The notes below the pieces were generated by a model that was not told the DNA's origin, searched no databases, and saw only the letters and a list, made by a program, of their open reading frames with translations. From Escherichia coli (GTDB lineage: Bacteria; Pseudomonadota; Gammaproteobacteria; Enterobacterales; Enterobacteriaceae): DNA of 64,000 nucleotides. Shown here one piece after another: positions 35,146 through 39,513 of this stretch; the first letter of the stretch is position 1; the number at the start of each line of letters is the position of its first letter. The stretch lies in assembly GCF_044324785.1 (NCBI RefSeq), contig NZ_CP172127.1; one strand, given 5' to 3'. Position numbers and translations under genes: made by a program.

Positions 35146-35571
35146 TTATTTCAACCGTTTACCCGCCTCATCAACCACTTTCTCGCCATCTTCCTTGGTG
35201 AACGCGCCTTGTTGCGCATTTGGCAGAATTTCCAGCACCACTTCTGAAGGGCGGCACAGGCGAGTTCCCAACGGCGTCACCACAATCGGGCGATTAATCA
35301 GAATCGGGTGCTGAAGCATAAAGTCGATTAACCGATCGTCAGTAAATTTATCTTCTGCAAGGCCCAGTTCCTCATACGGCTCGACGTTTTTACGCAACAG
35401 CGCGCGTACGGTAATCCCCATATCGGCAATGAGTTTGACCAGCTCATCGCGCGTTGGCGGTGTTTCCAGATAATAGATAATGGTCGGTTCTGTACCGCTG
35501 TTGCGGATCATCTCCAGCGTATTACGCGACGTACCGCAGGCCGGGTTGTGATAAATGGTAATGTTGCTCAT
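35146..35571 (-). CDS. arsC: Arsenate reductase ArsC (141 aa, glutaredoxin-coupled)
   Basis: Recognised ArsC sequence with catalytic Cys in HNPACGTSRN. Confidence 0.95.
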   Translation of the reverse strand: MSNITIYHNPACGTSRNTLEMIRNSGTEPTIIYYLETPPTRDELVKLIADMGITVRALLRKNVEPYEELGLAEDKFTDDRLIDFMLQHPILINRPIVVTPLGTRLCRPSEVVLEILPNAQQGAFTKEDGEKVVDEAGKRLK

Positions 35572-35583
35572 ATCAATATCTCA

Positions 35584-36873
35584 TTACAAAGTGAAAGAGA
35601 GACGTAGCGCCAGCGCAGCCAGCGTCACAAAAAGCACCGGCAGGGTCATGATAATCCCTGTACGGAAGTAATATCCCCAGCTGATAGTCATATTCTTCTG
35701 CGAAAGAACGTGCAGCCAGAGTAGCGTAGCCAGGCTACCAATTGGGGTAATTTTCGGTCCCAAATCGCAGCCAATCACGTTGGCATAAACCATCGCTTCT
35801 TTGATAACGCCAGATGCCGTGCTGCCATCAATGGACAACGCGCCAACCAGTACCGTCGGCATATTGTTCATAATAGAAGAGAGGAAGGCAGTGAGGAATC
35901 CGGTGCCGAGCGTCGCGGCCCACAGGCCGTTTTCAGCCAGCACGTTGAGTACGCCAGAAAGATATTCCGTTAGTCCGGCATTGCGCAGGCCATAAACCAC
36001 CAGATACATGCCGAGCGAGAAGATGACAATCTGCCAGGGCGCACCGCGCAGGACTTTACCCGTATTAATTGCATGACCGCGTTTAGCGACGGCAAATAAT
36101 ATCAGCGCGCCCACTGCCGCAATGGCGCTTACCGGAATGCCGAGCGGTTCCAGGACGAAAAATCCCACCAGCAGAAGCAGTAAAACAACCCAGCCAGCTT
36201 TGAACGTAGCAGGATCTTTAATCGCTTCTGCGGGAGATTTCAGCAGCGCCATATCGTAGTTCTGCGGAATATCTTTGCGGAAATAGAGATGCAACATCAC
36301 CAGCGTGGCAACAATTGCGGCGATATCCACCGGCACCATCACCGAGGCATATTCGCGAAAGCCGAGGCCAAAGAAATCTGCGGAAACGATATTCACCAGG
36401 TTGGAGACAATAAGCGGCAGGCTGGCGGTATCGGCAATGAATCCGGCCGCCATCACAAACGCCAGCGTCGTGCCTTTACTGAACCCTAAAGCCAGCAGCA
36501 TGGCGATGACAATCGGTGTCAAAATAAGCGCCGCGCCATCATTGGCAAACAGGGCGGCAACGGCAGCACCGAGCAGGACAATCCAGGTAAACAGCAAGCG
36601 ACCGCGTCCATTGCCCCAGCGTGAGACGTGCAGCGCCGCCCACTCAAAAAAGCCGGACTCATCCAGCAGCAGGCTGATGATAATGACGGCAATAAACGCC
36701 GCCGTCGCGTTCCAGACGATATTCCACACCACAGGAATATCACCCGGATGTACCACGCCCGTAACTAACGCCAGTACTGCGCCGAGTGTTGCACTCCAGC
36801 CGATGCCTAAACCTTTCGGCTGCCAGATAACCAATACGATGGTCAGGACAAAGATAGCGCCTGCCAGTAACAT
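35584..36873 (-). CDS. arsB: Arsenite/antimonite efflux pump ArsB (429 aa)
   Basis: 12-TM-like ORF; start at [10 protein letters not shown] (ORF-track start 36894 trimmed). Confidence 0.95.
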
Positions 36874-36927
36874 AATGCCTCCCGGAAAAAACACATGTGC
36901 AAATCCATATGTGTTTAGATAAATTTT

Positions 36928-37281
36928 TTAACTGCAAATGTTCTTACTGTCTTCGGAACAATTTTGTCGAGCCAGGTTGCGGACAATCACCTGAACCTTT
37001 TCCTGTTCGCATCGCCAGGCCTGCTCAATAATTTTCGCGGCCCATGATGGAATATGCGGTGATAAGCGGTAATGAACCCACTTACCCTGCTTGCGATCCA
37101 GCAATAGCCCACTTTCACGCAGCAATGCCAGGTGGCGGGATATCTTGGGCTGCGACTGATCGAGGGCAGTACAGAGATCGCAGACGCATAATTCTCCCAG
37201 CTCGCTGAGCAGTAAAACGATGCCCAGACGGGTTTCATCAGCAAGAATTTTGAACAGTTGGATGGGTAACAGAAATGACAT
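36928..37281 (-). CDS. arsR: Arsenic-responsive repressor ArsR (117 aa)
   Basis: ArsR HTH with metalloid-binding ELCVCDLC motif. Confidence 0.95.
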   Translation of the reverse strand: MSFLLPIQLFKILADETRLGIVLLLSELGELCVCDLCTALDQSQPKISRHLALLRESGLLLDRKQGKWVHYRLSPHIPSWAAKIIEQAWRCEQEKVQVIVRNLARQNCSEDSKNICS

Positions 37282-37433
37282 ATTGCGCTCCTGATTGTTG
37301 CAGGTAGTGTCTCTCTTCGAAGCGGATAAGTCAAAAACATATATGGTTTAACGAATGTGTATGTGCAGAGGAAGGTAATAGGTGTGAATTTTGAGTTGGC
37401 TATTCATTTGAAAGGAGGTCTGAATCAGGACGT

Positions 37434-37515
37434 AAAAAAACCGACTTTGCGTCGGTTTTTTACTTCCCAGCCCTGAGTTGGTGGCTCTGGCTGGAGTGAG
37501 AGAGCTCTTATCTAA
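37434..37515 (-). ncRNA. agrA: agr-type antisense sRNA, copy 1 (agrA-like)
   Basis: Minus-strand promoter (-35 TTGCAA, 17-bp spacer, -10 TAGTAT) and hairpin plus U-run terminator; about 30 nt of the RNA is complementary to the dinQ 5' region; ends approximate. Confidence 0.55.
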
Positions 37516-37667
37516 CAGCTCAATACTATTAGCCAGTGGCTAACATTGCAAGAATTAGCGATTTCTTCAGCTGGCGAAGGGACAGTTTGCTATACATGTT
37601 GGTGAAAGAGGATTTATATACTTTCATCGGGTCGCTGCCGTACCAAGCCTTGTCCGAATCCGGACGT

Positions 37668-37750
37668 AAAAAAACCGACTTCGCGTCGGTTTTTTACTTT
37701 CCAGCCCTGAGTTGGTGGCTCTGGTTGGAGTGAGAATGCCATCATCTAAC
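37668..37750 (-). ncRNA. agrB: agr-type antisense sRNA, copy 2 (agrB-like)
   Basis: Tandem duplicate of copy 1 with its own promoter (-35 TTGCAA, -10 TAGCAT) and identical hairpin terminator; ends approximate. Confidence 0.55.
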
Positions 37751-37814
37751 GCATCAATGCTAATACCATACTGAAACTATTGCAAGGACGTGCTGGTTTT
37801 ATAACCTGCATGTA

Positions 37815-37830
37815 CTGTATGATTATCCAG
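37815..37830 (+). promoter_or_regulatory. LexA (SOS) box upstream of dinQ
   Basis: ctgtatgattatccag fits CTG-N10-CAG with a TA-rich core. Confidence 0.6.
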
Positions 37831-38023
37831 TTAGCTCTGAGGCATTTTCACTCTGGTAATGCGCATAAACGCTTTCAAAGTCCTGGTCAGAAGTACGGGT
37901 GGTGCCGTTAACTGATGCTCTGGCCGGAGTGAGAGAGTTCTTATCTAACAATGAGACATGCGCCGTGACAGGCAGTGGATGAGTAAGCGGATGCATTCTC
38001 ACTCCATCGCATGGAGAAAACGG

Positions 38024-38107
38024 GTGATTGATAAAGCAATCATCGTTCTTGGGGCGTTAATTGCGCTGCTGGAACTGATCCGCTTTCTGCTTCAGCTTCT
38101 GAACTGA
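38024..38107 (+). CDS. dinQ: Type I toxin DinQ (27-aa single-TM peptide, GTG start)
   Basis: Translation VIDKAIIVLGALIALLELIRFLLQLLN* matches recalled DinQ; an in-frame ATG at 37991 would give a 38-aa variant. Confidence 0.75.
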   Translation: MIDKAIIVLGALIALLELIRFLLQLLN

Positions 38108-38125
38108 TAGCGGAAACGTAACTAA

Positions 38126-38155
38126 GGGCAAAGAGCACACCACTCTTTGCCCTTT
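38126..38155. terminator. Bidirectional hairpin terminator between dinQ and gor
   Basis: Stem gggcaaagag / ctctttgccc. Confidence 0.55.
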
Positions 38156-38160
38156 AACAT

Positions 38161-39513
38161 TTAACGCATGGTCACGAACTCTTCTGCCGCCGTCGGGTGA
38201 ATGGCGACGGTATTGTCGAAGTCTTTTTTGGTTGCGCCCATCTTCAGCGCCACCGCGAAGCCCTGCAACATTTCATCCATACCAAAACCAATGCCGTGAA
38301 TTCCGACAATCTTCTCTTCCGGTCCAACGCATACCAGTTTCATGCGGCACGGCTGGCGGTGAGTGGTGACTGCGGTATACATCGCGGTGAAAGAGGATTT
38401 ATACACTTTCACCTGATCGTCGCCGTACTGCTCGCGCGCCTGCGGTTCCGTTAAACCAACAGTCCCAATCGGCGGATGGCTGAAGACCACGGTCGGAATG
38501 TTGCTGTAATCCAGATGCTCATCCGGCTTGTTATTAAACAGGCGTTCAGAGAGACGGCGACCCGCTGCAACTGCTACCGGTGTCAGTTCCACTGCCCCCG
38601 TGTTATCGCCCACCGCGTAAATACCTTCAACGTTGGTATTTTGATATTTATCGACGACGATATAGCCTTTTTCGTTAGTTTTAACGCCAGCGGCTTCCAG
38701 GTTGATGTTGTCATTGGCAGGCTCGCGACCAATCGCCCAAATCAGGCAATCTACCGTTTCACTGCGACCATCTTCCAGCTCCAGCGTCAGGCTGCCGTCG
38801 GCATTTTTCACCACCGCTTTCGGGATGGCGTTGGTGTGCAGCTGCGGGCCTTCGGCGTTCATCACTTCGACCAGCGTTTCAGAGATCATCGGGTCGAAGC
38901 TGCGCAGCGGCGCATGTTTACGCACAAACAGATGCGTTTTCGCGCCGAGGCCGTTAATCACGCCCGCCAGTTCAACGGCGATGTAACCCGCGCCAACAAC
39001 CGCTACGCGCTCTGGCAGCGCCGGCAGGGCGAAGAATCCATCAGAATCAATACCGTATTCCACGCCCGGAATATCCGGGTGGCTCGGACGACCGCCGGTG
39101 GCGATCAGAATATGATCGGCCGTGATGGTTTCGCCGTTTACCTCCAGCGTTTTGGCATCAACGAAGCGGGCAAAGCCTTTGATTACATCAACGTTATTTT
39201 TACCGAGCACGTTTTCATAGGAAGTATGAATACGGTCGATATAGGCGATACGGCTGGCGATCAACGTTTCCCAGTTGAATTTATTGATAGTGGTATCGAA
39301 ACCATAATCCGGACCGTACATGTGGATCGCTTCACGGATTTGCGCCGCGTGCCACATCACTTTTTTCGGCACGCAGCCGACGTTCACGCAGGTGCCGCCC
39401 AGTTCTTTGGCTTCAATCAGCGCGCATTTCTGACCGTACATAGCCGCGCGGTTGATGGAGGCGATACCGCCGCTGCCGCCGCCGATGGCGATGTAATCAT
39501 AGTGTTTAGTCAT
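38161..39513 (-). CDS. gor: Glutathione reductase Gor (450 aa)
   Basis: FAD-binding GGGSGG motif and redox-active CVNVGC disulfide motif. Confidence 0.95.

Follow-up and report, generated by a model that had tools for sequence, protein, structure and literature searches.

A gor-derived fragment between agrB and agrA probably marks an ancient tandem duplication at the dinQ/agrAB locus of Escherichia coli

The dinQ/agrAB locus of Escherichia coli raises the question of how a piece of gor, the gene of glutathione reductase, came to lie between two small RNA genes, and whether it does anything there. The window discussed below is the whole analysed stretch of 64 kb (64,000 nucleotides) of E. coli DNA from contig NZ_CP172127.1. 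Over the region, strain N3 of E. coli agrees with it at 100% identity, and most other E. coli at 92–96%. The locus in the window is the known dinQ/agrAB type I toxin–antitoxin locus (PMC3567139), with arsR, agrB, agrA, the LexA-controlled dinQ and gor in the order published by Weel-Sneve et al. 2013 (PMC3567139) and Kristiansen et al. 2016 (PMC5066626). Along the plus strand, the order is arsR, agrB, the gor fragment, agrA, the dinQ promoter, dinQ and gor. The fragment between agrA and agrB has no mention in the dinQ/agrAB literature that we searched, and it is unannotated in K-12 and in the other RefSeq records examined. The features of the locus are as follows.

36928–37281, minus strand: arsR.
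37411–37644: repeat unit 1, 234 bp, pruned, comprising the agrB terminator and gene, the agrB promoter and the gor fragment.
37432–37515, minus strand: agrB small RNA gene, the antitoxin in K-12 (Rfam RF02891, 104.5 bits; K-12 annotation b4713).
37523–37551, minus strand: putative agrB core promoter, read from the sequence relative to the Rfam and K-12 5′ end.
37570–37644, core 37591–37643, minus strand (the orientation of gor): gor-derived fragment.
37645–38429: repeat unit 2, 785 bp, intact, comprising agrA, the agrA and dinQ promoters with the LexA box, dinQ, the dinQ terminator and the last 269 nt of gor.
37666–37749, minus strand: agrA small RNA gene (Rfam RF02891, 99.7 bits; K-12 annotation b4712).
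37815–37830, plus strand: LexA-box-like CTGTATGATTATCCAG in the dinQ promoter (window sequence).
37917–37950, plus strand: 34-nt repeat, third copy, located in the 5′ UTR of dinQ (repeat search).
38024–38107, plus strand: dinQ coding sequence for the 27-aa toxin (RefSeq annotation of the identical strain N3).
38161–39513, minus strand: intact gor, glutathione reductase, 450 aa.
38351–38429, minus strand: parental segment of the fragment inside the intact gor coding sequence.

Both agr genes score far above the gathering score of 40 of the AgrB family (RF02891), which was the only family found in an Rfam search of positions 37250–38250. They are antisense RNA genes with terminators, and they diverge from dinQ. 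The DinQ reading frame is placed between arsR and gor behind a promoter with the LexA-box-like CTGTATGATTATCCAG at 37815; it is supported by RefSeq and by Pfam PF28061, which matches a 49-aa product at dinQ. The gene is under LexA control, and the repeat in its 5′ UTR is the target of the Agr antisense RNAs (PMC3567139). The putative agrB promoter consists of a −35 element TTGCAA (37546–37551) and a −10 element TAGTAT (37523–37528) with a spacer of 17 nt; it was missed by a consensus promoter scan. The gor fragment starts about 18 nt upstream of this −35 element.

The similarity of the fragment to gor is far above chance. Positions 37591–37643 align with gor positions 38376–38428 in direct orientation and without gaps, with 44 identities in 53 positions (83%). 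The local alignment score of 35 lies about 20 standard deviations above that of 500 shuffled sequences (9.1 ± 1.3, maximum 15). The 26-mer GGTGAAAGAGGATTTATATACTTTCA, with up to three mismatches allowed, occurs at only two sites in the 64-kb window, one in the fragment and one in gor, and none is expected by chance. When gaps are admitted, the homology pairs 37570–37644 with 38351–38429, with 57 matches in 79 columns, so that the counterpart of the fragment is nt 1085–1163 of gor, codons 362–388. The left extension has a p of about 0.38 when the window allele is taken alone, and it is clear in the alleles of K-12 and BL21, of E. whittamii, and of a further locus labelled E. coli (L015). Relative to agr transcription, the agrA 3′ end is 22 nt upstream of the fragment, which itself occupies the positions 55–129 nt upstream of the agrB 5′ end.

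These results bear out the preliminary description of this DNA, which had noticed a gor-like segment upstream of an agr copy and in the orientation of gor. It had put the match at 37601–37644, which is the right place for a somewhat longer match, and had called it nearly identical to gor; the resemblance is close, but an identity of 83% is below near-identity. The segment does adjoin the second agr copy, which is agrA; however, the agr genes are on the minus strand, and the segment is thus downstream of agrA and upstream of agrB. Two other origins were considered and rejected. Positions 37565–37585 match the dinQ stop region at 15 of 21 nt and might have been a remnant of a second dinQ; the match is at chance level, and the gapped alignment favours gor (GCTGGCG...). 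A dispersed intergenic repeat of the REP or ERIC kind does not agree with only two sites in the 64-kb window. A 151-nt query found one place per genome in nearly all E. coli.

The position of the fragment is tied to the agr repeats. The two agr copies form a direct repeat with a spacing of 234 bp, in which 37418–37531 is 87% identical to 37652–37765. The homology to gor ends at 37644, and the homology between the agr units begins at 37645, which matches 37411. The fragment and its parental segment are offset by 785 bp, which is the length of unit 2 (37645–38429). Because the boundaries coincide at 37644/37645 and the offset equals the unit length, the site has the form of a tandem-duplication junction, in which the fragment is the tail of unit 1, and unit 2 ends in the intact gor. 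The fragment thus shows significant similarity to its parent, the same orientation, an end that abuts the next unit and an offset of one unit, as duplication-junction fragments do. The sequence left of unit 1 (37282–37412), compared with dinQ through the 3′ part of gor, contains nothing gor-like (score 10.0 against a shuffle mean of 10.0, p ~0.52), as expected if it is the original flank. The proposal of the preliminary description that the agr duplication carried a piece of gor, or that such a piece belongs to the repeat unit, is therefore upheld in part. The piece is derived from gor and linked to the duplication by its boundaries, the 785-bp offset and the junction in E. albertii described below, but it occurs once and is not a recurring part of the unit.

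Related genomes were sought by scanning species-representative genomes once for the agr motif, which gave 15 species-level hits and thus a small outgroup sample. The scan recovers only repeats retaining GGAGTGAGA..G.....ATCTAAC, so that its failure to return E. fergusonii, E. marmotae, E. ruysiae or Salmonella is uninformative about them. Escherichia albertii (L009) has one agr, and the identical junction ...GCCGTACT|AAATTTTGTCCGAATC is found directly left of its agr terminator. Collinear gor-like blocks precede it: 17 of 19 nt match at the junction, about 16 of 20 nt match about 100 nt from the gor stop, and 25 of 30 nt match in a block that starts exactly at the stop codon. The chain of blocks scores 97.9, compared with 56.6 ± 6.0 for shuffled sequences (z ~6.8). 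The block at the stop codon means that the original copy comprised no less than the terminal 269 nt of gor, and a junction common to E. coli and E. albertii means that the event predates the split of the two species. It is very unlikely that a nucleotide-identical junction arose twice. A single ancestral event therefore placed a copy of the final 269 nt of gor, or more, beside agr, and E. coli and E. albertii have kept different scraps of it. Escherichia whittamii and E. coli E69 contain the fragment along with all three repeats, and on its left the deletion ends at the same boundary as in the window. The locus L015 has lost agrB and retains a remnant of the agrB −35 element and an 82-nt fragment, and it too shares this left boundary. 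Escherichia sp. E1V33 has a single agr, whose left flank is marginally similar to that of E. coli agrB (p ~0.02), and we do not rely on this similarity.

Based on the homology and orientation of the fragment, the coinciding boundaries and the junction observed in E. albertii, a history of the locus can be proposed. The fragment is probably a non-functional piece of the 3′ part of gor, left where the two copies of an ancient tandem duplication meet. This duplication would have comprised agr, dinQ and the 3′ 269 nt of gor, and its first copy would later have been pruned. In the ancestor of E. coli and E. albertii, a block of about 0.8 kb would have been duplicated head to tail to give agr–dinQ–gor′ followed by agr–dinQ–gor. 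The block would have extended from just outside the agr terminator, through agr, the divergent agr and dinQ promoters, and dinQ with its terminator, to nt 1085 of gor. In the E. coli lineage, a deletion of about 0.55 kb in unit 1, between the agr −35 region and nt ~1163 of gor′, would then have taken the second dinQ promoter, the second dinQ and the 3′-terminal ~170–190 nt of gor′, and shortened the unit from 785 to 234 bp. The remainder of unit 1 would be agrB, its promoter and a gor′ stub of about 75 nt abutting agrA. Gene agrB would accordingly be the surviving antitoxin of a lost toxin copy, and agrA would be the copy still beside dinQ. We infer both the single-event origin of the agrB repeat copy (R1, unit 1) together with the fragment, and the former second dinQ. 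The second dinQ is not seen, and it is deduced from contiguity, since the block reached into gor. The single-event origin falls short of proof, because E. albertii has only one agr. The authors who described the locus presumed that the agr genes were "tandemly duplicated" (PMC3567139), which agrees with a duplication.

An alternative that we consider unlikely, although it fares best among the rivals, is that the gor fragment is older than the duplication of agrA and agrB and independent of it. For example, a dinQ–agr cassette with the 3′ end of a donor gor could have arrived by one-sided homologous and illegitimate recombination, and the displaced 3′ end of the resident gor could have decayed, with agrB made later by a small duplication or by an insertion into the decaying gor copy. 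Such a course fits the presence of the fragment beside a single agr in E. albertii, and dinQ-like modules at other sites and on plasmids (Serratia sp. H1w, L018; plasmid H30; the dql genes, PMC5066626) point to a mobile cassette. It also fits the lack of a trace of a second dinQ in the E. albertii flank. Beyond the gor′ stop codon, agr-repeat or dinQ similarity was not significant (score 11.5 against 12.1 ± 1.5; terminator arm p ~0.09), and no second dinQ or near-complete unit 1 was found among the 15 species-level hits and the E. coli samples. However, a two-step origin needs more events, and under it only coincidence would make the left end of the agrB/agrA homology (37411, 37645) fall precisely where the gor homology stops. 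Furthermore, a second tandem duplication that included the fragment should have left a piece of gor on the left side of agrB, where no gor homology was found. We therefore retain the single tandem duplication with later pruning as the probable origin.

The surroundings of the module in these genomes are variable. The agr module has a replacement hotspot on its left side: the window has arsRBC there (35146–37281), the loci L003, L004 and L015 have arsC only, with arsR and arsB deleted, and L030 has arsR–arsD–arsA. A HigB-like toxin gene is found in this position in E. albertii, and slp is directly adjacent, with no ars genes, in Escherichia sp. E1V33. The Serratia sp. H1w locus contains a dinQ-like reading frame with one agr-like repeat and terminator, away from gor. 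The plasmid match H30 (NZ_CP077439.1, E. coli O111) is a 43-nt agr-like stretch. Both are consistent with the mobile "dql" relatives (PMC5066626). Two other matches resemble contamination or mis-binning: a 424-nt contig of Acinetobacter haemolyticus (L011), which aligns to window positions 37202–37552, and a Lachnospiraceae metagenome-assembled genome (L013) carry E. coli arsR–agrB or agrA–dinQ sequence.

Within E. coli, the fragment is variable and dispensable. It is present in 3,841 of 5,426 genomes and lacking from about 1,585 (~29%), which still keep a matching agr–dinQ pair. The genomes without it lost it through recombination among the agr and dinQ repeats. A 234-bp deletion between agrB and agrA, which leaves one hybrid agr (loci L002, L003 and L029 have one agr), accounts for ~750 genomes, and a 453-bp deletion between agrB and the dinQ repeat (locus L004 has no agr) accounts for ~830, both counts being inferred from coverage classes and a few sequenced examples. 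With the 453-bp deletion, the promoters of agrA, agrB and dinQ are lost together with the LexA box, and a promoterless dinQ remains behind an agr terminator.

The genomes that carry the fragment fall into two allele classes. In 810 of them, including O157:H7 and O55:H7, it is 95–100% identical to the window, and in 3,029, including K-12 and BL21, it is ~82–83% identical; no intermediate allele occurs among the 3,841 genomes. The two classes differ at 21 of 71 sites (29.6%) and by a 4-nt indel within 75 nt, whereas the adjacent 38-nt agrB promoter has no differences (0/38) and all other flanks differ by 1–5%. An allele divergence of 30%, so far above that of the flanks, is not explained by simple drift within the species, which counts against the proposed reading. 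Since the K-12-type allele is only 5 of 71 sites (7%) from that of E. whittamii, the window-type allele must be either very old or a short-patch import from a distant lineage. Both E. coli classes share 7 changes and a 2-nt deletion relative to gor. Gene conversion from gor was rejected as the source of the window allele: about 8 sites and the indel lean towards gor, and about 11 sites favour the K-12 allele, which is a balanced result. The fragment of strain AW1.7 has a further deletion of ~11 nt. The frame-breaking indels, high divergence and dispensability indicate relaxed constraint.

The fragment thus appears to be an inert scar, a spacer between the agrA terminator and the agrB promoter that drifts freely. 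Sequence analyses and genome comparison gave no sign of a present function, and a promoter and terminator scan found no signal inside the fragment.

The three copies of the antisense repeat vary in a way of their own. The repeat has the form GGAGTGAGA-N8-ATCTAAC and lies at 37484–37517, 37718–37751 and 37917–37950 in the window, with a variable core of 8 nt. At least four types of core occur, GAGTTCTT, ATGCCCAC, ATGCCATT and TAGTCGTC (loci L002–L009, L015, L019, L020 and L023–L033), and in each genome the type co-varies between the dinQ 5′ UTR and one agr copy. In K-12 and in the window, agrB matches the dinQ repeat at 31–32 of 34 positions. In E69, L024, L030 and L031, agrA is the better match (29–30 of 34, compared with 27 of 34 for agrB). 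Since the better-matching copy differs between strains, the cognate antitoxin copy seems to be strain-dependent. A perfect 14-nt inverted repeat connects TGGAGTGAGAATGC in the agrA copy (37726–37739) with GCATTCTCACTCCA inside dinQ (37993–38006). The dinQ arm is one arm of the published intramolecular duplex of the 5′ UTR, and dinQ alleles with a target core of the ATGCC type would lengthen this self-pairing from ~10 to 14 bp.

We speculate, with considerable doubt, that the fragment may be the fixed landmark of a system of three repeats, in agrB, agrA and the dinQ 5′ UTR, that continue to exchange sequence. Gene agrA would then hold a reserve antitoxin specificity and not be degenerate, and the dimorphic alleles of the fragment would mark two ancient haplotypes, or a functional element upstream of agrB under diversifying selection.

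Co-option of the fragment for cis-regulation is improbable. It could serve the agrB promoter (about −55 to −129) as an upstream activating or UP-like region or as a site of protein binding, or it could insulate agrB from the agrA terminator side. Its position immediately upstream of the agrB −35 element and its A/T-rich centre GATTTATATACTTTCA, which is kept in most alleles, would suit such a role, and two sharply distinct allele classes with none between them could reflect selection. However, the 30% divergence and the 4-nt and ~11-nt indels lie beside a core promoter that is fully conserved, the matching agr–dinQ pair persists without the fragment in about 29% of E. coli genomes, and the fragment contains no promoter- or terminator-like signal.

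An action of the fragment on gor, by RNA pairing with gor mRNA or as a partner of the gor 3′ end in recombination or conversion, is less probable still. The preliminary description had suggested that the segment could form an RNA antisense to gor or mediate recombination, and neither suggestion is supported. The fragment and gor share 83% identity over 53 nt at a distance of 785 bp, but they are in direct orientation. Because the fragment and the agr genes share the strand and orientation of gor, an RNA reading through from agrA would be gor-sense, and no promoter-like site was found on the opposite (plus) strand in 37280–37800. Efficient RecA-dependent exchange in E. coli needs a minimum of ~23–27 bp of identity. 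The longest identical run between the fragment and gor is 18 nt, compared with 24 nt for the agrB and agrA repeats, which do recombine. Deletion products between the fragment and gor are absent from the 5,426 E. coli genomes, in which the only deletion classes are those between the agr copies and between agr and the dinQ repeat. At one polymorphic site, GCC[G/A]TA, the fragment and gor co-vary in most of the sampled genomes, which favours an action on gor; however, the co-variation is broken in E69, and the balance of ~8 against ~11 sites is unlike conversion.

That the fragment encodes a small protein is the least credible reading, although the window-type allele has an ATG-initiated 32-aa reading frame in the frame of gor (37529–37627, minus strand) and one RefSeq genome, of strain CH4793, has a 71-aa product annotated across agrA and the fragment (WP_000968019.1): the 32-aa frame overlaps the agrB promoter without an evident ribosome-binding context and is broken by the 4-nt deletion in the K-12-type allele (3,029 genomes), the 71-aa frame is closed in the window, and the coding look is inherited from gor. 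In the case of WP_000968019.1 (L008, 895–1110, minus strand), the gor-like coding signal has most likely given rise to a false annotation.

With the tandem duplication as its probable origin, the fragment adds to the published account of dinQ/agrAB. It provides direct sequence evidence on the origin of the two antitoxin RNAs AgrA and AgrB. It indicates that the duplicated unit held part of gor and hence presumably dinQ, as a block reaching 269 nt into gor would almost certainly have spanned dinQ too. It also suggests that agrB, and not agrA, is the copy whose toxin was lost, so that the functional antitoxin of K-12 would be the orphan of a deleted toxin copy. In addition, the fragment accounts for a gor-like reading frame to which some annotations assign a hypothetical protein, and it can be used for typing structural variants of the locus.

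The fragment reveals no new mechanism; it adds a further case to a familiar class, that of gene fragments at duplication junctions. Like other such fragments, it copies part of the gene next to it without a change of orientation, ends exactly at the next unit and is offset by one unit. It also resembles them in having no conserved frame, evolving fast, and being polymorphic for presence and absence. Two things set it apart from typical junction fragments: it is very short, since the later pruning of unit 1 would have left about 75 nt of at least 269 nt, and different pieces persist in E. coli and in E. albertii. Among the type I modules of E. coli that are duplicated in tandem are zorO–orzO/zorP–orzP, the ldr/rdl long direct repeats, and ibs/sib. 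Copy-number variation in zor/orz as well as in tis/istR has been discussed (PMC11264685). As in zor/orz, ldr/rdl and ibs/sib, a module of toxin and antisense RNA would have been duplicated head to tail at dinQ/agrAB, and copy number varies by recombination between the repeats. Those modules usually keep both copies of toxin and antitoxin, whereas at dinQ/agrAB the putative second toxin is gone and the extra antitoxin has been kept. The dinQ/agrAB duplication also differs from them in that a piece of a housekeeping gene, gor, was carried along.
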